This document shows positions 4,247 to 56,766 of a DNA stretch of 64,000 nucleotides, piece by piece. Every line of letters begins with the position of its first letter. Position 1 is the first letter of the stretch. The position numbers and the translations under genes were made by a program. Location: contig CAVZUR010000003.1 in assembly GCA_963778555.1 (NCBI GenBank), forward strand, positions 21,067 through 85,066, read 5' to 3'. Below the pieces are notes generated by a model that was not told the origin of the DNA, searched no databases, and saw only the letters and a program-made list of their open reading frames with translations. Origin of the DNA: Candidatus Moraniibacteriota bacterium. GTDB taxonomy: Bacteria > Patescibacteriota > Minisyncoccia > Moranbacterales > UBA1568.

Positions 4247-5008
4247 CTATACTTCCCGGCGATACTCAGCAATCTTGTACTGGCCTGTCATGAGGCGCCA
4301 TTTCGTCTTGAAGAGATCGATTAGCACCTGGATAAAGCCGTTCGGTCCGGTCAGGCTCACCGTTGATCCCTCCTCATTCATCCAACGCACTGGAATCTGC
4401 TTCACCTTGAAGCCCAGTGCCTCAGCGAGGATGATCAATTCAAAATCGAAGCCGAAACGGTCCACGACCATGCGGCTCGCAATCGCATCCGCCGCTTTGC
4501 CGGAGAGTGCCTTGAAACCACACTGCGTATCCGGATAGCTCCAGAGTCCAAGCACGATGCGGATGAGCCAATTGCCGCCCTCGCCCATGATTTCGCGGCG
4601 CCGAGGCTGGTGGACCTGGATGAACGCGCCGTCGATCTTACGAGAACCGATGACAACATCATATCCTTCTTTAAAATGCGGAAGGCAGGCATCGAGATGC
4701 GTAATCGATGTCGAACCGTCGGCATCGAGGAAGGCGCGGTACTCGCCTTTGCCTTCGAGAAGGGCCTGACGAACGACAGCGCCCTTGCCGTGATTTTCAG
4801 CATTGTTGATAACGCGGAGATGCGGAATCGTGAGTGCGTAATTGCCGGCAATCTCGGCCGTATTATCCGGTGATCCGTCGACCAAGACGATGATCTCGTA
4901 AGTGAACGATTTGCTCTTCAGATAACGGTCAATCTCGAGCAGGTTGTGCCCAATCCGCTCCCCTTCTTTATATGCAGGAATCAAGACCGACAGATACGGG
5001 GTCTCCAT
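4247..5008 (-). CDS. Family 2 glycosyltransferase (dolichyl-phosphate mannose synthase-like)
   Basis: 253-aa ORF; LSVLIPAYKE start, DGSxD and DADG motifs typical of GT2. Confidence 0.8.
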   Translation of the reverse strand: METPYLSVLIPAYKEGERIGHNLLEIDRYLKSKSFTYEIIVLVDGSPDNTAEIAGNYALTIPHLRVINNAENHGKGAVVRQALLEGKGEYRAFLDADGSTSITHLDACLPHFKEGYDVVIGSRKIDGAFIQVHQPRRREIMGEGGNWLIRIVLGLWSYPDTQCGFKALSGKAADAIASRMVVDRFGFDFELIILAEALGFKVKQIPVRWMNEEGSTVSLTGPNGFIQVLIDLFKTKWRLMTGQYKIAEYRREV

Positions 5009-5396
5009 AAAGCAACACTAAAGCTTACTGTTCCATTGTAACATATGAGCGTGCTATTCGAAGTGAGCTTTTTTGGTCGGGGCGCCGGGAATCCCCGCCT
5101 GCCGGACGGGCAGAGAACCCGGCCTACTCCGTGGTTTTCTCTCCCGAAAAACAGAGACGTTATTCGGGAAAACCCGTAAAAAGTGAAGCGGTTCACTTTT
5201 TACCCCCATGCATTTGTTTCTTTGTCGGAGCGCCGAGAATCGGTCACGCGTATATTTTCTGACGAAAATATCGCTCGACCCCGGCTCGGTATGTTCGCCT
5301 TTCACCGAAACGGCTCAAACTCACATAGACCTCCGCCTTTCGATTCCGGACGAAAGCCAAACTCTTGGCTTTCTCACCATCTTTCACTTCGCTCAG

Positions 5397-10434: not shown

Positions 10435-10863
10435 TCAGCCAGGTTGCTGGATGGCATCGATCTCGTAGACGGTGCAGCCGCCTTCGTCCAGTGCGACACA
10501 GTTCGCTTTCTGGGGTGGCAACTCCCGCGAGAGAGTCTTGAGAGCCGGTATGACCTCGGGACACTCTTCTGCGATGAGGGCGCAGACTTCCACTGTGACC
10601 GCACCTTGGGCGACAGGCTCCTGTCCCGCGTCCCGGTACGGCTGCCAATTGGCATTCGGCATGAGCTTATCGACGAGTCCGCGCCAACGGCTATCGACCT
10701 CGATGCAGACGATGACGAACTCGTCGTTCATCTGACCGCGGATGTGCAAGGAGCGGTACGCCAGATGCTGCAGCCGATCCATGCTCTGCGACACCATTTC
10801 ATGGCGCCGCGCCGCCGCCGGTGACAAATCCATGCCAATCGGTGTTGTTTGAGCACTCATGTT
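10435..10863 (-). CDS. Hypothetical protein (~142 aa), immediately upstream of the response regulator
   Basis: Start MSAQTT preceded by RBS AAAGGAGAGAG. No recognisable domain. Confidence 0.4.
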   Translation of the reverse strand, partial: NMSAQTTPIGMDLSPAAARRHEMVSQSMDRLQHLAYRSLHIRGQMNDEFVIVCIEVDSRWRGLVDKLMPNANWQPYRDAGQEPVAQGAVTVEVCALIAEECPEVIPALKTLSRELPPQKANCVALDEGGCTVYEIDAIQQPG

Positions 10864-11055
10864 GCTCTCTCCTTTGTTAAGGTAAGGTCCGGAATCGGAC
10901 AAGAAAAAATACCATGTTTCCCCCACTTTGTCTACCCACCCAAACAAAAACCCGAGGAGCTGCTCCTCGGGTCAATCAATCAGCGAAAAGAATTTTCTTT
11001 TGTTTTTGTTCGGTTTCCATAGTTACTCAGACTCTAGCAGGAAATAATGAAATAG

Positions 11056-11673
11056 TTACTTTTTCTCATTAATTTTAACCTCCATCTCTTGCTGACCATT
11101 CCAAGAAACAGATAGCTTTTTATCAAAACTACCTCCATTTTCAAGATAGAAAGTCAATGTTAATTCCGTTTCTCCTGTTTCTAGAGAATCAAATTTTCGG
11201 TTGCCACCACTATGAAGCGTCGATATCCTGACATTCGTGCCCCCATTAGCAACATCATGTGTGAGCACATCAAGATACGCAATTTGATCATGAACTATAT
11301 TTCTAGCCACTTCATTCACATGCGTCCAATTTAATGGAACAGAGAGGTATGGCGTCCTTTTATTCCCGCTCTCAATTATGCTTGTAACATCCACTTGTAC
11401 AAATCTTGCTGTCTCCTTTCCAGCATTTTTTATAGCAAGACGCCAATATTCATTTTCCTTCTGTACAAATTTTTCAATGTCATCAACAATAACCAGTCGA
11501 GGTTTAATTCCTATAAGAGGCTTTAGATATCGTCCGATTCCACTGGCAATAAGTAGCGCAACAAGTGAACTCCAAAATATCTCATTACCCAGAATTTCGA
11601 CTAAACTATCTATCGATTTAGTAATAATTTGACAGATTTCATCTGACATACAAGTGTGTTTAATCAGTATCAA
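11056..11673 (-). CDS. Hypothetical membrane-anchored protein encoded in an AT-rich islet (~37% GC vs ~60% flanks)
   Basis: 205-aa ORF with one N-terminal TM helix. Own rho-independent terminator at 10965-11000. Sharp compositional shift. Confidence 0.5.
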
Positions 11674-11700
11674 AAACGCCCCGGGTGGGGCGCTGGCACT

Positions 11701-12973
11701 TTATTTCTTCATCTTGCGGCGGATGAAGGCCGGAATCTCCAGGTCTTCCTCCTCGACGATGTCCTTCGACTCCTGCCGCAGGCCGAAACTCTTGGGCTGA
11801 ATCTTTTCTTCGATAATGAGCGGGGTTGGCTCGATCTGGCGCGAGGTGAAGGTCGTCGGCTCGCCCAGCGTATCCGCGACTTCGTCCTCGGGTTCCTCGC
11901 GGCGATAATTGGATGTCATCTGGCCGATAGTCGGGCTCTTGGCGCGCTGGACCAGGCCGATCGGCATTTCCTTCACCTTGCCGGAATCGAAACCGGTCGC
12001 CACGACGGTAATCTGAATGTCGCCCTTCCGGATCTGTTCGTCCACCACCGCGCCAAAGATGACTTTCGCGTTGGGGTCGATGTTCTCGGTGATGACATTG
12101 GCGGCCTCGTTGATTTCGAGCATGCCGACATCGGTCGAGCCAGAGATATTGAAGAGGACGCCTTTCGCCCCGTCGATAGAAATCTCGAGCAAGCGGGGAA
12201 TTGATGGCGGCGCGGGCGGCCTCGACGGCGCGGTTTTCGCCAGAGGCGATGCCGATACCCATGAGGGCGGAGCCGGAATCCTGCATGATGGCGCGGACAT
12301 CAGCGAAGTCGACGTTCACGATACCCGGCCGGGTGATGAGGTCGGAAATCCCCTGCACGCCCTGTCGCAGGACATCGTCGACGATGCGAAAGGCGGAGAT
12401 GAGCGTCGTCTTCCGGTCGATGATAGAGAGAAGCTTGTCGTTCGGGATGGTGATGAGCGTATCGACGCGGTCCTTCAGATTATTCAACGCTTCATCGGCG
12501 ATGGCACGGCGTTGGGAGCCTTCGAAGGCGAACGGTCGCGTGACGACACCGACGGTGAGGGCGCCGAGCTCTTTGGCGGTCTCCGCGACGATGGGGGCCG
12601 CGCCGGAACCGGTCCCGCCGCCGAGGCCACAGGTGACGAACACCATGTCGGCGCCTTTCAAGACTTCTTGGATCTCATCGCGGTTCTCTTCCGCGGCTTG
12701 ACGGCCGATCTCGGGATTCATCCCGGCGCCGAGTCCCTTGGTCAGATTCTTGCCGATGTGAATTTTCTCCTGAGCGCGCGAGTGATGCAGCGCCTGCGCA
12801 TCGGTGTTGATAGCGACGAATTCGACACCCTTGATCTTGGCATCGATCATCCGCGAAATCGCATTGCCACCAGAACCGCCGACGCCGACGACTTTGATTT
12901 TGGCGAACGTTTCGATGTCGGGTTTGATCTCGGCCATACGGGCTACTGTGTCATCAATCGTTAAATGAGTCAT
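11701..12973 (-). CDS. ftsZ: Cell division protein FtsZ, interrupted by a single-nucleotide indel in a C-run near 12190
   Basis: GGGTGSG tubulin signature in the 437-aa ORF. The C-terminal domain and conserved C-terminal peptide ([14 protein letters not shown]) are in overlapping ORF 11701..12300. The junction reads AINSPL|[10 protein letters not shown] with one extra base. Confidence 0.9.
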
Positions 12974-13024
12974 CCAGCAGACACCTGAGCCTGAGACAAC
13001 ACAACCTCGGGCGGTTTCGCTTGA

Positions 13025-13075
13025 TGAACCACTCTATCACGCACAAAGTCGGGGTGTCAACCCCGTTAGAAACGC
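13025..13075 (-). promoter_or_regulatory. Putative ftsZ promoter: GTTTCTAACGGGG-TTGACA-18nt-TAGAGT, with the -35 embedded in a GGGG..CCCC hairpin
   Basis: Read on the minus strand ~55 nt upstream of the ftsZ ATG. The same upstream element recurs at 23520-23573 with TTGACC-17nt-TAGACT. Confidence 0.4.
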
Positions 13076-13172
13076 GGTTTTCCCCTGAAAGTGAAGCTCT
13101 TTCCAGGTACTTCATCATCCTCTCAAAAGAACGGGTTGCGTTCGTACATTTCTAACGGGGCAAGAAATCCCC

Positions 13173-14441
13173 TCAGGGCAGAAAGCGCCGGAACAGGCCC
13201 TTGGCCTGACCAGCCAAGCCACCCCAATCACCCGGAATGCGGCCGAGAAATTTCGAGGCGCGGCCGAAGGTGAAGCCCTCACCCGTATCGCCGTCAGCCT
13301 GCGACAACAGCAACAGTCCCACCACCGTCGCCGACGCGGGGCTGTCGACCTGATCGAGAATGCCGCCGAGCGGTTTCGGATAGCCAATCTGCGCCGGCAG
13401 TCGCAATTTTCTTTTGGCGAGATCGACCGAACCAGGCACGAGAATGCCGCCGCCGGTCAAGATCACGCCCGCCGGCAGGAGCGCTTCGCGATTGATAGAT
13501 TTGAGTTCGAGATTGACGTAATGGAAAATTTCTTCGAGCCGCGCTTCGATAATCTCGGCGACATGATGGCGCGAGATCTCATCGTTCTCCTGCGAATCGA
13601 ATTGGGAAAGATCGATCGCTTCTTTCTTACCGATCTCGCTCGGAATCGCGTGGCCATACTGGACCTTCACCGCTTCGGCGACATCGATCGATGTCCGGAG
13701 GCCGATGGCGATGTCATTGGTCACGTGGCTGCCGCCGACGGGCAAGACCGCCAGGTGGAGGAGATCGCCGTCTTCGAAAACGGCCAGGGATGTGGTGTTG
13801 GCGCCGATATTGACGAGTACGACACCAAGCTCTTTCTGCTTGGGACTGAGAATGGCTTCGGCCGAGGCGAGCGGTTCGGCGATGAAATGATGGGCGGTGA
13901 TACCGGCGAGCTCCAGACTCCGGACGAGATTCTTCAGATGATTGCTCCCCGTCCCGACCACGAGCGAAGAGAGTTCAAGCCGGACGCCCCGGAGACCGAT
14001 AGGGTCTTTGATATTCGCTTGATCGTCGAGCCGGTAGTGCTGCGGGACGACATGGAGGATCTCTTTGTTGGCACCGAGGATGGTCCGCGCCTGTGTTTCC
14101 TCGACGATGCGGGCGAGATCGTCCTCGGTGACCTCGCCGTCCGCCTTGCCGACGGCAATCACGCCGATCGCAGACTGGGCGAACAGATCCGATCCCGAAA
14201 CGGAACAGGCGACCGAATTGGTCGCGACGCCCGCCATGCCTTCCGCCGCCTCGAGGGCGGCATTGATGGATTTGGCGACCTCTTCCGGCTGGACGACGAT
14301 GCCGCGCCGGATGCCGACTGAAGGAACAGCGCCGACGCCGATGACCTTCAGCGGTCCATCGTCATGCGGCAAGAGAGCGATGACCGCCCGAACGGTCGCC
14401 GAGCCGATATCGAGGCCGACAATGTGCTGTGATTTCGCCAT
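13173..14441 (-). CDS. ftsA: Cell division protein FtsA
   Basis: 422-aa actin-fold protein (DIGS start, SHSP70-like motifs); located upstream of ftsZ as usual. Confidence 0.9.
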   Translation of the reverse strand: MAKSQHIVGLDIGSATVRAVIALLPHDDGPLKVIGVGAVPSVGIRRGIVVQPEEVAKSINAALEAAEGMAGVATNSVACSVSGSDLFAQSAIGVIAVGKADGEVTEDDLARIVEETQARTILGANKEILHVVPQHYRLDDQANIKDPIGLRGVRLELSSLVVGTGSNHLKNLVRSLELAGITAHHFIAEPLASAEAILSPKQKELGVVLVNIGANTTSLAVFEDGDLLHLAVLPVGGSHVTNDIAIGLRTSIDVAEAVKVQYGHAIPSEIGKKEAIDLSQFDSQENDEISRHHVAEIIEARLEEIFHYVNLELKSINREALLPAGVILTGGGILVPGSVDLAKRKLRLPAQIGYPKPLGGILDQVDSPASATVVGLLLLSQADGDTGEGFTFGRASKFLGRIPGDWGGLAGQAKGLFRRFLP

Positions 14442-22275: not shown

Positions 22276-23007
22276 TTATTTCTTCTCCTCTTTTTTGGCC
22301 GCAGGCGCTTTCTTGATGTCCTTCTTCACGCCTTGCTTGTCGTCGCCTTCAGTCGCTGGTGCCGCACCTTCTGGCGATTCTTTCACGACGCCTTCAACTT
22401 TCGTCACATCCATTTCGACTTTCTCTTCGAGCGATGACATCTCGGCATCGGTGCGCGGCCGCATGACAGTAGCGACAATCGCTTCGAGCGTATCGAGCAT
22501 CACGACGCCAGTCGGGAGCGCGATATCAGACACCTTTACTTGGCTATCAAAATCAACAAGCTGCGCGAGGTCGATGACGAATGAGTGCGGCAAGTCCTTC
22601 GGGAGGCATTTCACTTTCACTTCATCGAGATTACGGATGAGCACGCCACCCAAGGCCTTCACCGCCGGCGCCTCACCGACAAATTCAAGCGCGACATCCG
22701 TCTCGATCTCTTCATCCATATTCACTTGGTAAAAATCGATATGCGTGAAGCGGCCCGACAAGGGATCCACCTGCACGTCATGGATGAGCGTATTGGCGCC
22801 CCGCTTCCCGTCGACGGAAAGCTCGACGAGCGTACTTTCGCCCGCCGCCTTGTAGAGCTTTATGAAATCGATCGAACGGACCGAGAGATTCATCGGGGTT
22901 GTGCCATGACCATACTGCACTGCTGGAATCAGACCGTCAGAGCGGAGCTTGGCGAGCGCTTTTCCTGATTCTTTTCGCTCAAGCACATTCAGCTTCAAGA
23001 TATCCAT
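22276..23007 (-). CDS. rplY: 50S ribosomal protein L25 / general stress protein Ctc with Lys/Glu-rich C-terminal tail
   Basis: L25/Ctc N-terminal beta-barrel (LKLNVLERKESGKALAKLRSDGLIPAVQYG). Confidence 0.85.
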   Translation of the reverse strand: MDILKLNVLERKESGKALAKLRSDGLIPAVQYGHGTTPMNLSVRSIDFIKLYKAAGESTLVELSVDGKRGANTLIHDVQVDPLSGRFTHIDFYQVNMDEEIETDVALEFVGEAPAVKALGGVLIRNLDEVKVKCLPKDLPHSFVIDLAQLVDFDSQVKVSDIALPTGVVMLDTLEAIVATVMRPRTDAEMSSLEEKVEMDVTKVEGVVKESPEGAAPATEGDDKQGVKKDIKKAPAAKKEEKK

Positions 23008-23048
23008 AACGCGTATCAATCAGTTTAAAAAATGTCTTTCCTGCCCGG

Positions 23049-23372
23049 CTAGCGGATCAGATCGTCGACGCCACCGTGATGCTCTTTCAGGAACTGGTGG
23101 ACCGTGAGCACTTCATCACTCGAAATCGCCTCGCCCTTGAACAATCGGTTAGCCTCACCTTGTTCGAGATCCGTCAGCACTCCCATAGAAACCACACCGA
23201 CCGGTGACATCGAAACGTAGACTAAGGTCGACGCACCGCAAGCATCGCAGGTGAGATGCAGAGTCGAACGCTTGTCTTCCTGGTCAAGCAAGAGCATCTT
23301 GGCGGGTCGATACTCTTTGCTGCAGACCGGGCAATGGACCAGCGCCTTCAAATTTTCGAGGTTTGGTTTCAC
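23049..23372 (-). CDS. Hypothetical zinc-ribbon protein (CxxC...CxxC)
   Basis: 107 aa with CPVC and CDAC pairs. Confidence 0.45.
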   Translation of the reverse strand: MKPNLENLKALVHCPVCSKEYRPAKMLLLDQEDKRSTLHLTCDACGASTLVYVSMSPVGVVSMGVLTDLEQGEANRLFKGEAISSDEVLTVHQFLKEHHGGVDDLIR

Positions 23373-23519
23373 GTTTGCAGTTTACCCCGTTAGGCAACTT
23401 TGAACAATCGATAGATGGAGACAGAATTACTCCTATAACCAGGTACCTGTGGGGGGCTCAAGGCTTTCAAGGCTGTCTAACGGGGTGAATCAAAAAATGC
23501 TCAGGAGCAGCAATTTTCG

Positions 23520-23573
23520 AGCAAAAATAGTCTACCAGAAGGAAGGGGTCGGGTCAACCCCGTTAGAAACACC
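23520..23573 (-). promoter_or_regulatory. Putative promoter: GTTTCTAACGGGG-TTGACC-17nt-TAGACT
   Basis: Second copy of the hairpin/GTTAGAAAC element in a -35/-10 context, minus strand, upstream of the Zn-ribbon/rplY genes. Confidence 0.35.
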
Positions 23574-23674
23574 CTTCCTTATGAGAGCTACCCTCCATCG
23601 CCGTTTCGCCTATTGGTAACTAAGGCTTTTCCCTAAGAACCTTTCTAAACGGGGTCAACCCCGGACTGGAGTGG

Positions 23675-23943: not shown

Positions 23944-25110
23944 TTATTCCCGCCCCTTGATAACCGGAAACTCGATGCCAACCGTTTCATTATTTATGCC
24001 CATCATCGGCTTGTCAGTAGCGAGATCAAACCTTCCATCACCATTATCTTCATACATGATCGCAAAAAGAGTTTCGCCTTTTACGTTTCGAGAAAGCGGA
24101 ATATCGAAATAGTCTTTCTGCCTCTGCTGGTCCTTAAAGGTTTCCGCAAGCTCTGGGGTGTAAGTACCATTTTTCTTGGCCGATGCGATCATAAAAGGTT
24201 CTTCGAGGAGCGAATACGTCCCTAAAACTTTGCCGACACAGCCATCATTAGATTCGTGGATTGCCACCCACGCTGGCACATACGATCGGGCTACATATAC
24301 ATTCACGAGGTTGCCTGGAACCTGGTCGAAAAGCCCCAGGCCTTCCCATTTCGTTTTACCACTAAGATAAACAGATTGGTACTGATTGGCACTTACATCA
24401 GATTTGAAGCGCACCTTGATGAGGGCGGGGTCGGCAAAAGAGTAGCTATCGGTTCTACTTTTTCGCCTATAGGTTCTCACCTTGTCCTTAGAGCGGTCAA
24501 ACAGTCCATCCCCATCATCTTCATACAAGCTCGCATACACTTCGAATCTATCCATGTATCGACTCAAAGGGATGGCGAAGTCATCGTGAGTGCCTGCTGA
24601 CAAGGGATAAACCGCACTATCTTTTTTATCATCTACAGAACCAATGAGCGGGGGTCCGACCGTGACAAATCCGGCTTTCTGTAACTCCACATGCTTTACC
24701 CGTAAATTTCTTCCTGGCTCCTGTTCCGTAGAAATCTGGAAAAAGGCTGACTGATCCTCATCTATTTTCTGAAGTGATTGCTGCACCGCCATGGTAGAAG
24801 CAATTTCCCCGAAAAGGCCGCTTTTAGATTTAGTAATCTCTTCCTCCGACGCTCCCTCTTTTTTTGCTTGTTGGAATGCAGCCTCAAGTTCCTTCTGATA
24901 CTCCTCCATCATCTTCGCCGGTGTCATTACAAATGTTTTTGGCTTGAAACACTCTGACGAAGCCAATGGCTCGATTGGATTGGAAGTTTGAGAGACAACA
25001 CTCTGTTCCTGAGCGGATTTTGAAGGTTGTTTTAAAATATAAAAAGCAGCAACTCCCGTGAATAGAAGGCTTGCCGCTCCAACGACAACGATTGTTTTTA
25101 CCCAGGACAC
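23944..25110 (-). CDS. Secreted/membrane-anchored hypothetical protein with two repeats carrying Ca-binding-like DGDGxFD motifs. Lower-GC (~45%) islet.
   Basis: N-terminal signal anchor. Internal repeats IPLSRY...YEDDGDGLFDRSKDK and IPLSRN...YEDNGDGRFDLATDK. GC clearly below the flanks. Confidence 0.55.
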   Translation of the reverse strand: MSWVKTIVVVGAASLLFTGVAAFYILKQPSKSAQEQSVVSQTSNPIEPLASSECFKPKTFVMTPAKMMEEYQKELEAAFQQAKKEGASEEEITKSKSGLFGEIASTMAVQQSLQKIDEDQSAFFQISTEQEPGRNLRVKHVELQKAGFVTVGPPLIGSVDDKKDSAVYPLSAGTHDDFAIPLSRYMDRFEVYASLYEDDGDGLFDRSKDKVRTYRRKSRTDSYSFADPALIKVRFKSDVSANQYQSVYLSGKTKWEGLGLFDQVPGNLVNVYVARSYVPAWVAIHESNDGCVGKVLGTYSLLEEPFMIASAKKNGTYTPELAETFKDQQRQKDYFDIPLSRNVKGETLFAIMYEDNGDGRFDLATDKPMMGINNETVGIEFPVIKGRE

Positions 25111-25146: not shown

Positions 25147-27232
<2,086 letters not shown>

Positions 27233-27247
27233 AGGGAGATGAATTGA

Positions 27248-39074: not shown

Positions 39075-46138
<7,064 letters not shown>

Positions 46139-46409
46139 AGAAAAACACTCACGCCGCTCCGTCTTGTCCCTGGGAAGACAAGCCGGAAGTAGTGAGGATT
46201 ATGTTATTTACTTGTCCCGCCGGTCGAAAAATCGACTGTATGCATCACCCGAACTTTAAGCTAGTGAGGCCTATCGAAAAACCACTTTCTCCTTGAAAAA
46301 CAGTTTTTCGACAGACCTGTTGCTAGAAATCGAAAACTTTCTCTCGAGTACTGATGAGTCTAGCAAGGCCCGTATTTCCTGTCAAATAGCGAATAAAAAC
46401 CCCGGGGCT

Positions 46410-47598: not shown

Positions 47599-47626
47599 AG
47601 AAAAAACGGGGCTGCTGCCCCGTTAA
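47599..47626 (-). terminator. Rho-independent terminator (GGGGCAGCAGCCCCGTTTTTTCT on the minus strand) downstream of the DUF883 gene
   Basis: GC hairpin followed by a T-run when read on the minus strand. Confidence 0.5.
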
Positions 47627-50471: not shown

Positions 50472-50800
50472 CCCTAACAAATTTTCGGGCCTATCGGCTC
50501 GGGAATTTTTTTTGAGGGATGAAAGGAAGGAAGCCAACCGCTTGGCTTCCGTGGGGGTTCGAAAGGCGGAGCGTTGCCGAATGAACACATGAGGCCGCGA
50601 GCCAGGGTCGGGGAAATTGGTGAGCGACGGCGAGCCCATTATCCCTGACCGAATCACCCCTCACTTGTATTTTTTTGGCTGAGGGGTAAGGGTGGGGATG
50701 AGAAAGCCGGACCGACCCGTCAGTAGACGGCGAGGGAGGTAGGGTCGCGACCCCGGGCGAGGGTTTTGACCTGAACGACCATGGGTTGTGACTGATCTTT

Positions 50801-54144: not shown

Positions 54145-55682
54145 GTGGTTGACCAAAGCCGCGTGTTAGACTGGAAATATATGCATACGACGCTTCCGGA
54201 GCCTATCTTTGAAACGCTCACCGCCTTGGAGCAGGCCGGTTTCAAAGCATACATCGTGGGCGGATCGCTCCGCGACCTCCTTCTCGGACGGCCACCCAAA
54301 GACTGGGACCTCACGACTGACGCGCAGCCTGGAGCGGTCCAAAAGCTCTTTCCCGATTCGGTATACGAAAATACCTTTGGCACGGTCGGCGTGAAAGTCG
54401 CCCGTTTTCTCCCTTCGACTCCAGACACACATGAGCACGACATTATCGAAGTGACGACCTTTCGGACTGAGCGTACGTATAGCGATGGACGGCATCCCGA
54501 TACCGTCGCATTCGTCACCACCGTCGAAGCAGACCTCGCGCGACGTGACTTCACTGTGAATGCGATGGCGGGGCAAGTCACTGGAACGGCTGGCTCAGTC
54601 AATATTGAAATTATCGATCCTTTTGGAGGTCAGAGCGATATTCAGAAAAAACGCTCCGCGCCGTCGGTAAACCCGAGGAACGCTTCACAGAAGATGGACT
54701 GCGTCTCATGCGCGCACTTCGACTGGTCGTGGAACTGAGCACGGCCGAAAAGGAGCGGCCGGACTGGTCCATCGAAGCGGAGACGGCGGCGGCGCTTCAA
54801 GCGTGCTCGAACCGGCTGCAGTCAGTCGCTTTCGAACGGATTCGGGATGAATTTTCACGTATCATTCTTTCACCGTATCCGAGCCAAGGTGTAACGCTTC
54901 TCTTGGAAACTGGACTCCTCCAATACATCATTCCTGAGCTCGTCGAGGGCGTCGGCGTCACACAGAACCTCCACCATATCTATACCGTCTGGGAGCACAA
55001 TCTTCGCGCGCTCGCGACATGTCCGTCTCAGAAGCTATCCGTCCGTTTGGCGACGCTCCTCCATGACGTCGGCAAACCGAGGACGAAGCGTGGCGAAGGC
55101 CATAACTCGACGTTCTATAATCACGACCATGTCGGTGCACGCATGACGAAGAAGATCCTCGAGCGCCTACGCTACCCGAAAAAAATCGTTGACCATGCTG
55201 CCATGCTCGTCGATAACCACCTCTTCTACTACAATGTCGGCGAAGTGACAGAAGCCTCGGTCCGGCGACTCATCAAACGCGTGGGTTTGGAAAATATGGA
55301 TGATCTCATGGCTGTGAGAATCGGCGATCGCCTCGGTTCCGGTGTTCCGAAAGCGAAACCCTATAAGCTCCGGCATCTCGAATACATGGTCGACAAAGTC
55401 TCACAGGATCCAACCTCCGTAAAAATGCTCAAGATTAACGGGTCCCAACTCATGGAAAAACTCGGTATCGTGCCCGGACCGAAGATCGGCGCGTTGCTCG
55501 ACTGCCTCCTCGCAGAAGTGATCGATAATCCGACCTTGAATACCGAATCGACACTTCTTGACCGGGCCCGACAACTCATGGATAATGACCTCGATGCGCT
55601 CCGCAGTTTGGCTCAGGAGCGCATCAATACGGAGCGTTCTGCTCTCGATACAGCCATACGCGGCCGGCATCACGTCACCTGA
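54145..55682 (+). CDS. cca: CCA-adding tRNA nucleotidyltransferase with HD domain, interrupted by a frameshift in an A6 run near 54650
   Basis: Pol-beta NTase head (GGSLRDLLLGRPPKDWDLTTD) in ORF 54145..54738. Continuation ...TLRAVGKPEERFTEDGLRLMRALRL and HD domain (LHDVGK) in ORF 54708..55682. Confidence 0.8.
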
Positions 55683-55845
55683 CGATTGAATTTCACCCGC
55701 TTTCAGAGGGTATAGAGGGTACCGGTCCGCTGACTGACAGCGTTTCTCTCTGTCACATTTCCGGGGCATAACCCCGTGAGAAACTGACTCCGTGAGAAAA
55801 TTATCAGAGGATTAACAGCGCGAGAATTGTGAGATTTTTTCTAAC

Positions 55846-55915
55846 GGGGCATAGTATAGTGGTAGTACATGCGCTTCGGGTGCGTAAGGTCTGGGTTCGA
55901 TTCCCGGTGCCCCGA
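55846..55915 (+). tRNA. tRNA-Pro (anticodon CGG)
   Basis: Acceptor GGGGCAT/GTGCCCC, anticodon stem TGCGC/GCGTA with loop TTCGGGT, T-arm CTGGGTTCGATTCCCGG. Parallels the tRNA-Pro(GGG) at 5397. Confidence 0.75.
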
Positions 55916-55983
55916 CTACCAATCATGTGATGGGGGAAGAATCTGCTGATCATCGCAAAAACCAGCGCTGCTAATTTGAAAGT

Positions 55984-56547: not shown

Positions 56548-56621
56548 TACAATGGCAGGCGGGCACGCCTAAGCCTTAGGAGCTAGTGCTCATACGAGCA
56601 TGAGAGTTCGAATCTCTCCCA
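56548..56621 (+). other. tRNA-Leu-like 3' segment (CTTAGGA loop, variable arm, T-arm, CCACAGC-A-CCA). Its matching 5' acceptor half GCTGTGG lies at 56421-56427, upstream of the complete tRNA-Leu.
   Basis: Perfect 7-bp complementarity between 56421-56427 and 56612-56618. No local 5' acceptor strand. Confidence 0.35.
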
Positions 56622-56766
56622 CAGCACCAGAAAGGTAAGTGATACAGCAAGCCAACCTGAGAAGCAGGGACCAGCAAGGACCGTAAGGGTTCGGATGCCT
56701 CCTTTGACGTCAAAAAGAAGAGAACTTCCATTTTTTTGGGAAGCTCTCTATCTTTGGAAAGAGGTC

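Follow-up and report, generated by a model that had tools for sequence, protein, structure and literature searches.

A recurring motif beside the ftsZ and rplY promoters of a Candidatus Moraniibacteriota bacterium: probable ends of a miniature inverted-repeat transposable element

The 64,000-nt stretch of contig CAVZUR010000003.1 analysed here (hereafter the window) comes from a Candidatus Moraniibacteriota bacterium and carries on its minus strand the gene order ybeY, dgk, ftsA, ftsZ. The FtsA gene lies at 13173-14441, and the nearest relatives of its product, 84-88% identical, are named Moraniibacteriota. A second minus-strand group consists of a DUF1653 gene, followed by a gene for a 107-aa Zn-ribbon-like protein (23049-23372) and by rplY (22276-23019), and a tRNA-Pro(CGG) gene is found on the plus strand at 55845-55916 (ARAGORN and Rfam). 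All three loci contain a motif which the first-pass annotation of this DNA had described as a hairpin fused to GTTAGAAAC, and which it took for either a lineage-specific UP or activator element or a small repeat similar to miniature inverted-repeat transposable elements (MITEs). The recurrence is real. Searching the window for CCCCGTTAGAAA with at most one mismatch gave seven matches vs. 0.24 expected, and none of 100 shuffles reached seven. The 8-mer CCCGTTAG occurs six times, every time within one of four convergent inverted pairs, whose arms lie at 13061-13073 and 13148-13160 (pair 1, perfect 12/12 ends), 23385-23398 and 23473-23485 (pair 2, degenerate), 23558-23570 and 23642-23654 (pair 3, right arm with one extra A) and 55772-55784 and 55837-55849 (pair 4, one mismatch).

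The pairs delimit four non-coding elements of 78-101 bp (copies 1-4), bounded by terminal inverted repeats (TIRs) of the form Y-CCCGTTAGAAA ... TTTCTAACGGG-R. Pairwise blastn-short comparisons and repeat finding over the whole window showed that the ends alone are shared, the interiors of the four copies being dissimilar. Empty sites could be seen in related genomes for all four copies, and the flanks carry target-site duplications of 3-4 bp (TCAA/TCAA around copy 3, CAA/CAA around copy 1). The unit lengths, the termini and the fixed register of the duplications all fit MITEs. The TIRs, the target-site duplications, the empty sites and the dispersal over many genomes described below favour the second of the two proposals, and we consider it likely, with a probability of roughly 0.87, that the "hairpin + GTTAGAAAC" motif represents the two ends of a ~100-base non-coding MITE inserted into pre-existing promoters and a tRNA gene.

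Copy 1 (13061-13160, no strand assigned), identified in the pair scan, is 100 bp long and separates the stop codon of ftsA (13173-13175) from the ftsZ promoter. Its perfect 12-nt TIRs, CCCCGTTAGAAA at 13061-13072 and TTTCTAACGGGG at 13149-13160, are flanked by CAA at 13058-13060 and again at 13161-13163, a direct repeat that reads TTG on the gene strand. The ftsZ promoter (13031-13060, minus strand) consists of a -35 box TTGACA (13060-13055), an 18-nt spacer and a TG-extended -10 box TAGAGT (13036-13031); it scored 10 of 12 matches in the promoter scan, and the first three bases of its -35 box are the right-hand copy of the target duplication. Orthologous regions of relatives were fetched via their FtsA proteins, which are 86% (L001 and L002), 84% (L003 and L004), 87% (L128) and 85% (L129) identical to that of the window. 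In L001, L002, L003 and L128 the ftsA-ftsZ spacer is empty: the ftsA stop codon is followed by ~10 nt and then by TTGACA. Relative to these genomes, the window contains an extra 100-bp block between the stop codon and the -35 box, with TTG on either side, and the block TTGACA-N18-TGATAGAGTGGT(T/G)CATCAAGCG is kept in L001, L003, L128 and L129.

At the same TTGA of the ftsZ -35 box, L129 carries a 102-bp element (4407-4508) of its own, with a clean TTGA target-site duplication, T/A termini (TCCCGTTAGAC...AATCTAACGGGA) and an interior that is unalignable with copy 1. L128, which has TTGACACCCCG and the leader in common with the window, carries no element at this box. We read the insertions in the window and in L129 as probably independent events, because L128 is empty and because the ends are well preserved while neutral DNA is already unalignable at such divergence. 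Two independent hits on the TTGA of ftsZ would then point to a real target preference rather than chance, and would favour a site preference of the enzyme over mere sparing by selection.

Copy 3 (23558-23654, 97 bp, no strand assigned) is bounded by the left TIR CCCCGTTAGAAAC and the right TIR TTTCTAAACGGGG, the latter with one extra A. It is flanked by a 4-bp duplication, TCAA at 23554-23557 and 23655-23658, which reads TTGA on the gene strand and falls within the -35 box of the promoter of the Zn-ribbon-like gene and rplY (23529-23557, minus strand; -35 TTGACC, 17-nt spacer, -10 TAGACT). The minus-strand sigma70-like boxes reported earlier for the two loci, TTGACA-N18-TAGAGT running from 13060 to 13031 and TTGACC-N17-TAGACT running from 23557 to 23529, were recovered by our promoter scan, with TG before each -10 box. 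The empty sites of copy 3 read GCGGGGTTGACCCGAGC..TACACT in L001 and ACGGGGTTGACCCCGG..TACACT in L003; both genomes have GGGGTTGACC-N17-TACACT followed by a conserved leader (GCTCGAAAATTGCTG ... GCATTTTTTGAT). The window reads ..CCGGGGTTGAC/CCCG..97 bp..CGGG/GTTGACCCGAC..TAGACT, that is, an insertion duplicating TTGA inside the -35 hexamer. As relatives hold the same promoters at exact empty sites, the promoters of ftsZ and of the Zn-ribbon-like gene and rplY are ancestral. The suggestion that the repeat had seeded promoters is not supported in the window: the -35 and -10 boxes were there before, the element entered the -35 hexamer, and the duplication rebuilt it.

Copy 2 (23385-23485, 101 bp, no strand assigned) is old and decayed and lies in the 5' leader of the Zn-ribbon-like gene. 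Its TIRs are CCCCGTTAGGCAAC and GCTGTCTAACGGGG, and its flanks, TTTA and TGAA, are each one base off the TGTA of the empty site, which is uninterrupted in L001 (GATACA/CTGCAAACATG). At the same point L003 has a homologous insert of ~100 bp whose ends and interior are further decayed (CCTATAGAC ... CAACAGGGTAAA). Copy 2 is common to the window and the L003 lineage, and the joint decay of TIRs and interior is what a selfish insert would show.

Copy 4 (55772-55849, 78 bp, no strand assigned) is inserted after nucleotide 9 of tRNA-Pro(CGG), with the TIRs CCCCGTGAGAAAC (left, one mismatch) and TTTCTAACGGGG (right). Comparison with L131 shows that the original 5' end of the tRNA gene, CGGGGCATA, is stranded beyond the element at 55762-55770 (plus strand). 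In L131, whose CCA-adding enzyme is 82% identical to that of the window, the empty site reads GTCACATGAAAAA/CGGGGCATAGTATAGTGG in a near-identical tRNA-Pro(CGG), and the GTCACAT upstream of the tRNA is common to both. The present 5' end of the gene is composite: bases 1-5 (CGGGG) are the last five of copy 4, and bases 6-9 are the duplicated CATA. The overlap of the motif with the start of tRNA-Pro at 55838-55849, seen already in the first-pass annotation, is therefore real for TTTCTAACGGGG and is explained by the insertion of copy 4. A tRNA-derived origin of the element, as in short interspersed nuclear elements (SINEs), was rejected, since tRNA-Pro shares just 5 nt with it and the L131 tRNA is intact without the element. 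In another relative, L130 (4160-4190 and 4207-4278), a tRNA-Pro(CGG) of different sequence has a fragment identical to the window-type tRNA (GTGGTAGTACATGCGCTTCG) immediately upstream, which suggests that the tRNA gene was replaced or disrupted there, perhaps by an integrating element.

The GGGG-loop-CCCC hairpins to which the motif was said to be fused do exist, but they are composite structures, in which flanking DNA with a run of G or C pairs with the CCCC/GGGG at the element's end. Such a run lies beside five of the six well-preserved window ends, vs. P = 0.015 per site in the window. The palindrome CGGGG-TTGA-CCC(C)G at the Zn-ribbon promoter is ancestral, the CCCCG after TTGACA at the ftsZ promoter is common to L128 and L129, and the hairpin at tRNA-Pro is the acceptor stem. 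All three of these targets resemble two abutted element ends, which may indicate an end-like targeting (n = 3). The related sequence at 47601-47626 had correctly been called an ordinary terminator: it is a minus-strand GC hairpin followed by T6 and is unrelated to the element. No intrinsic terminator was found at 12800-13400, and the window copies have stems of 4-5 bp followed by GTTAGAAA.

To describe the element outside the window, we scanned 185,579 representative genomes for CCCGTTAGAAA-N50-80-TTTCTAACGGG (22 fixed bases, perfect 11-nt cores). At least 120 stretches were found, vs. ~1 chance match by our estimate (596 Gb x 31 gap lengths / 4^22). The family counts that follow (119 or 122 elements), like the family features, rest on the matches listed. 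Hosts among these include many Patescibacteria classes, Planctomycetota, Deltaproteobacteria/Syntrophaceae/Desulfovibrionales, Nitrospirae/Thermodesulfovibrionales, Omnitrophota, KSB1 and a few bins labelled Gammaproteobacteria, with the reservation that the taxonomy of metagenome-assembled genomes (MAGs) may be affected by contamination. Three copies (L125, L126 and L127) lie on contigs classed as viral in IMG/VR, two of them on one 30-kb contig, and such contigs are a possible vector for spread between phyla.

The members share the layout 5'-Y-CCCGTTAGAAA-(T)...(A)-TTTCTAACGGG-R-3' (ends also written YCCCGTTAGAAA), with ~13 nt conserved per end and a complementarity that usually ends one base past the core. 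Next to CCCG, on its outer side, stands C or T, which in 111 of 119 elements is the complement of the base on the outer side of CGGG; this terminal Y/R therefore belongs to the element. An exact 4-bp direct repeat in fixed register flanks 79 of the 119 (an inverted one was seen in 2), and several of the remaining elements have 3-bp repeats, as in copy 1. The commonest repeats are TTTA, TGAA, TAAA, TTCA, TTGA, TGGA and TCCA, in the context R-TNNA-Y. G4/C4 flanks do not characterise the family, their frequency being 1.7% vs. 2.6% in controls. The size between the conserved cores is 72-102 bp, a range fixed by the scan itself; both conservation and size range are biased, because the scan demanded perfect 11-nt cores and a spacing of 50-80 nt. 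Interiors vary from lineage to lineage, and their GC content follows that of the host locus only moderately (r = 0.43). Very short end-to-end forms occur in L058 and L109. In the MAGs DX4.bin27 and WY2.bin9 (L010, L011 at 2167-2258 and 4942-5033, L032 and L018) every copy has identical flanks on both sides (..agtcctctgtatgtttac/element/gtttatatgctattacccggtat..), so the element is nested there in a larger multiplied repeat.

A metagenome scan with a 25-nt subfamily end as query revealed a 93-nt subfamily, 'delta', at no fewer than 120 loci, with 111 analysable copies in 109 distinct flanks. Both ends (right end with at most two mismatches) are present in 72 copies, of which 60 show an exact 4-bp duplication. 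The flanks always read (A)GTAAAC/.../GTAAAN in one orientation, and in the copies read a Shine-Dalgarno site with a start codon often follows downstream. A minimal form of 38 nt (CCCGTTAGAAATTCCAGCGGGGCATTATTTCTAACGGG) was found in L138, L141, L143 and ~40 other metagenome loci; it is as common as the 93-nt form, has the same GTAAA flanks and appears to derive from the longer form by deletion between its two internal CAGCGGGGCATTA repeats. The same interior with different flanks was seen in the 'delta' subfamily but not among the four window copies.

With respect to gene starts, 45 of 122 copies abut exactly the start codon of an open reading frame (ORF) of at least 60 codons, the codon being regenerated with the terminal purine as its first base, and in 39 of these 45 a second start codon remains on the far side. 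The target R-TNNA-Y fits both GTTGAC, in which a purine stands before the -35 hexamer, and ATGAAY/ATGGAY, which is a start codon with the codon after it. TTGA-type junctions in other genomes are real -35 boxes, because a -10 box lies at 16-18 nt in 5 of 8 of them vs. 9% of control RTTGAC sites. The promoter context seen in the window is one case of a family-wide habit.

Since the element has TIRs and duplications of fixed length, we infer staggered cuts by a transposase acting in trans. Such an enzyme would bind the 13-nt ends and excise or copy the element, which would be joined to a target cut with a 4-nt stagger at the TNNA of R-TNNA-Y, repair of the stagger giving the duplication. The duplication and the terminal purine together rebuild the interrupted -35 hexamer, start codon or tRNA 5' end, and because the cut signal is rebuilt, insertions are tolerated and accumulate at the 5' ends of genes. 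In the window, the element has replaced just the DNA upstream of the -35 box.

No transposase was found between matching ends in the window, in ~250 fetched loci or in end pairs 130-7000 bp apart, nor at the solitary ends checked. All-against-all clustering of 760 ORFs from carrier loci gave housekeeping families alone, with no transposase, and a phmmer search of the same ORFs with the ISEcp1 transposase gave no match. End pairs with matching duplications in L116 and L030 enclose ordinary genes, and the L011 stretch between two copies encodes a secreted protein and no transposase. In the metagenome scan with the 'delta' end, the matches were copies of 93 nt, deletion forms of 38 nt and a small number of larger or nested ones, and no transposase was among them.

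Several observations weigh against a MITE origin. As no autonomous partner was found among the loci searched, both the transposase and its chemistry are deduced indirectly. Copies 1 and 3 combine near-perfect ends with unrelated interiors, which is unusual for MITEs amplified from one deletion derivative. The duplication of copy 1 measures 3 bp, not 4 bp, and copy 4 has an extra A at its left junction and the non-canonical target CATA. Insertions of the 'delta' subfamily lie beside (A)GTAAA and all have the same orientation, a specificity of site and orientation beyond that of most cut-and-paste MITEs. Finally, the excess of G4/C4 runs at the window copies is not explained by the target motif of the family. 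Some single-base details, such as the 3-bp length of the duplication at copy 1 or the additional A of copies 3 and 4, may be errors, because many essential genes of the window are broken by frameshifts. Overlapping frames split ftsZ (11660-12973, switch near 12150-12300) and gyrB (25274-27247, at least four pieces), rpoB/rpoC (40948-46192) is fragmented and cca (54145-55682) is in two pieces; the relatives' genes are intact, and the splits are likely long-read assembly indels and not biology.

Among other explanations, the least improbable is a mobile regulatory cassette, in which the MITE is kept for outward promoter or 5' signals driving the adjacent gene, in line with the earlier idea of seeded promoters. 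The frequent junctions at start codons agree with this, as does the 'delta' subfamily, which always presents the same end downstream. In the 45 start-codon copies the sigma-70-like score is higher in the direction of the adjacent gene than in the opposite one (28 vs. 8, Wilcoxon p = 0.005). Yet the means are modest in such AT-rich DNA (8.1 vs. 7.7 of 12), and the bias could reflect either an effect on expression or the survival of those insertions that are tolerated. Translational coupling through an open upstream frame reaching the TAA of the end or RTGA was rejected as a general rule: 12 of the 39 copies that keep a far-side start codon fit, while 27 have premature stops, and no consistent ribosome-binding site was seen. 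As both window promoters are older than the element, we regard the cassette as an unlikely general explanation, although some family copies outside the window may contribute to regulation.

We consider it quite improbable that the elements are moved not by a staggered-cut DDE transposase but by an enzyme of another chemistry, for instance a HUH enzyme of the IS200/IS605 type, one of the IS110 type or a site-specific recombinase. The site and orientation specificity of 'delta' beside (A)GTAAA, the likeness of window targets to abutted ends (CGGGG-TNNA-CCCCG) and the failure to find a DDE transposase in the loci searched could be accommodated by such enzymes. On the other hand, clear TIRs and 4-bp duplications in fixed register are the signature of a staggered cut, and HUH and IS110 elements are not known to have such duplications and TIRs.

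The lineage-specific UP element or activator site proposed earlier, upstream of the -35 boxes of ftsZ and the rplY operon, is refuted here and is regarded as very improbable. It is true that two copies read GTTTCTAACGGGG fused to TTGAC(A/C)-N17/18-TAGA(G/C)T upstream of genes, directly upstream of the -35 box as UP elements and activator sites would be, and that the element abuts real -35 boxes in other genomes too. However, the motif is absent from L001-L004 and from the ftsA-ftsZ spacer of L128, though the -35 box, the -10 box and the leader are conserved there, and the orthologous promoters of L001, L003 and L128, relatives with 84-87% identical FtsA, keep the boxes and their spacing without it. 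Unlike UP elements or activator sites, the motif is mobile, occurs in inverted pairs flanked by duplications, and is found also in a 5' leader, in a tRNA gene, at start codons and in unrelated phyla.

Equally hard to sustain is the idea of a structured RNA that serves as small RNA, attenuator or RNase III site and has the closing stem GUUAGAAA/UUUCUAAC: copy 1 does fold with a 16-bp terminal stem (-50 kcal/mol, z = -2.9) that would form in the transcript if ftsA were read through, but the fold of copy 3 does not surpass that of shuffles (z = -1.6), the unconserved interior leaves nothing to covary, Rfam 15 gave solely tRNAs at its gathering scores in the whole window and no match with an E value below 5 in the two regions examined, the duplications and empty sites are DNA-level features, and copies lie upstream of the promoters they adjoin.

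A MITE remains the reading we prefer, and the family can be compared with known systems in that light. Bacterial examples of MITEs are the Correia elements of Neisseria, RUP of Streptococcus pneumoniae and ERIC. The present elements resemble them in size (~40-150 bp), in being non-coding, in their TIRs, short duplications and many dispersed copies, in their presence or absence between relatives, in sites beside promoters and gene starts, and in ends able to pair in read-through RNA. They differ in that ~13 nt per end are conserved between unrelated interiors of different lineages, with the same ends in at least six phyla including the Candidate Phyla Radiation (CPR), and in that the duplication and terminal base regenerate -35 hexamers, start codons and a tRNA 5' end. 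Correia elements use TA, whereas the present family targets R-TNNA-Y with a 4-bp duplication. Membership in IS982 was rejected, as its end consensus AC(N)6T(N)5TT (PMC7335449) does not fit. The same applies to a derivation from IS200/IS605 in the manner of PATE (subterminal hairpins, no TIRs, no duplication), since the present elements have TIRs and duplications.

We know of no parent insertion sequence for the family. The closest likeness is to the IS1380 family (ISEcp1, IS1247, IS1678), which has 5'-CC ends, inverted repeats of ~13-20 bp and duplications of 4-5 bp. IS1678 has the end CCTGAATAATTC... and a 5-bp GATAG duplication, and IS1247 has inverted repeats of 16/13 and a direct repeat of 5 (PMC3281130). 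IS1380-family elements take along neighbouring DNA of varying length, and this could account for the differing interiors. Unlike in IS1380, however, the similarity of the ends stops at CC, and T/A-type copies begin with TCCCG. The TIRs of piggyBac begin with CCC and its duplication is a 4-bp TTAA with the variants TAAA and TCAA, IS1380 being used as its prokaryotic outgroup (PMC10813416). The present ends, (C/T)CCCG, with a 4-bp T..A (TNNA) duplication are similar to both; in contrast to eukaryotic piggyBac, the element is prokaryotic and uses TNNA instead of strict TTAA. No DDD transposase of piggyBac type was found in the loci searched. The piggyBac terminal repeat CCCTAGAAAGATA resembles CCCGTTAGAAAT, which is a lead and not a test, and a kinship of the element ends with IS1380 and piggyBac is likewise a lead only. 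Full-text literature searches gave primers alone for the end sequences, and nothing relevant for MITEs in CPR.

A broader proposal, which we hold to be doubtful, is that these are cross-phylum minimal transposons with piggyBac/IS1380-like ends (CCC..TAGAAA) and a 4-bp T..A duplication, whose targets coincide with the -35 box, the ribosome-binding region and the start codon and whose ends are made such that these signals are restored on insertion. They would act as a mobile 5' cassette rewiring the expression of core genes (ftsZ, ribosomal proteins, tRNAs) even in streamlined genomes of the CPR and be moved by a transposase shared by groundwater and sediment bacteria, possibly phage- or plasmid-borne. 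Were the IS1380/piggyBac link true, a prokaryotic relative of a transposase widely used in genome engineering would have these elements as minimal substrates.

The elements show that mobile DNA is present in ultra-small, streamlined CPR genomes, that it has moved since the split of close relatives and that it inserts into control regions of essential genes (ftsZ, the rplY operon, tRNA-Pro). Without this explanation the motif would be liable to misannotation as a terminator, a small RNA or a promoter element. The recurrence of identical 13-nt ends in at least six phyla suggests that subsurface bacteria have a transposase pool or vector in common, which may be relevant to gene exchange between CPR and other bacteria. 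The R-TNNA-Y rule and the rebuilt signals would also provide a natural experiment on tolerated 5'-end insertions, as well as a strain-level marker.

Some further features of the window were noted. Just downstream of ftsZ, 10850-11750 is a low-GC island (36-40% vs. 55-60% around it) containing a 205-aa ORF (11056-11673, minus strand) without a Pfam match. In the relatives this slot holds NrdR (L001), an unknown 160-aa protein (L003), HEPN_AbiV (L128) or unknown genes (L129), and it looks like a variable, possibly defence-related hot spot. At 56572-56629, 25 nt past tRNA-Leu(TAG), there is an 81%-identical copy of the 3' half of this tRNA (56490-547) with a CCA end and no ARAGORN call, which may be either a degenerate second tRNA or what is left of an att-site duplication. 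The two arms of a 44-nt inverted repeat (5331-5374 and 50528-50571, 80% complementary) lie just after tRNA-Pro(GGG) and tRNA-Ser(GGA), respectively, and the repeat includes the T-arm-like GGTTCGAAAGGCGGAG. Finally, 23944-25110 encodes a secreted-looking DUF7282 protein of 388 aa, in which an internal 55-nt direct repeat (24010-24064 and 24481-24535, 80% identical) suggests a duplicated domain.

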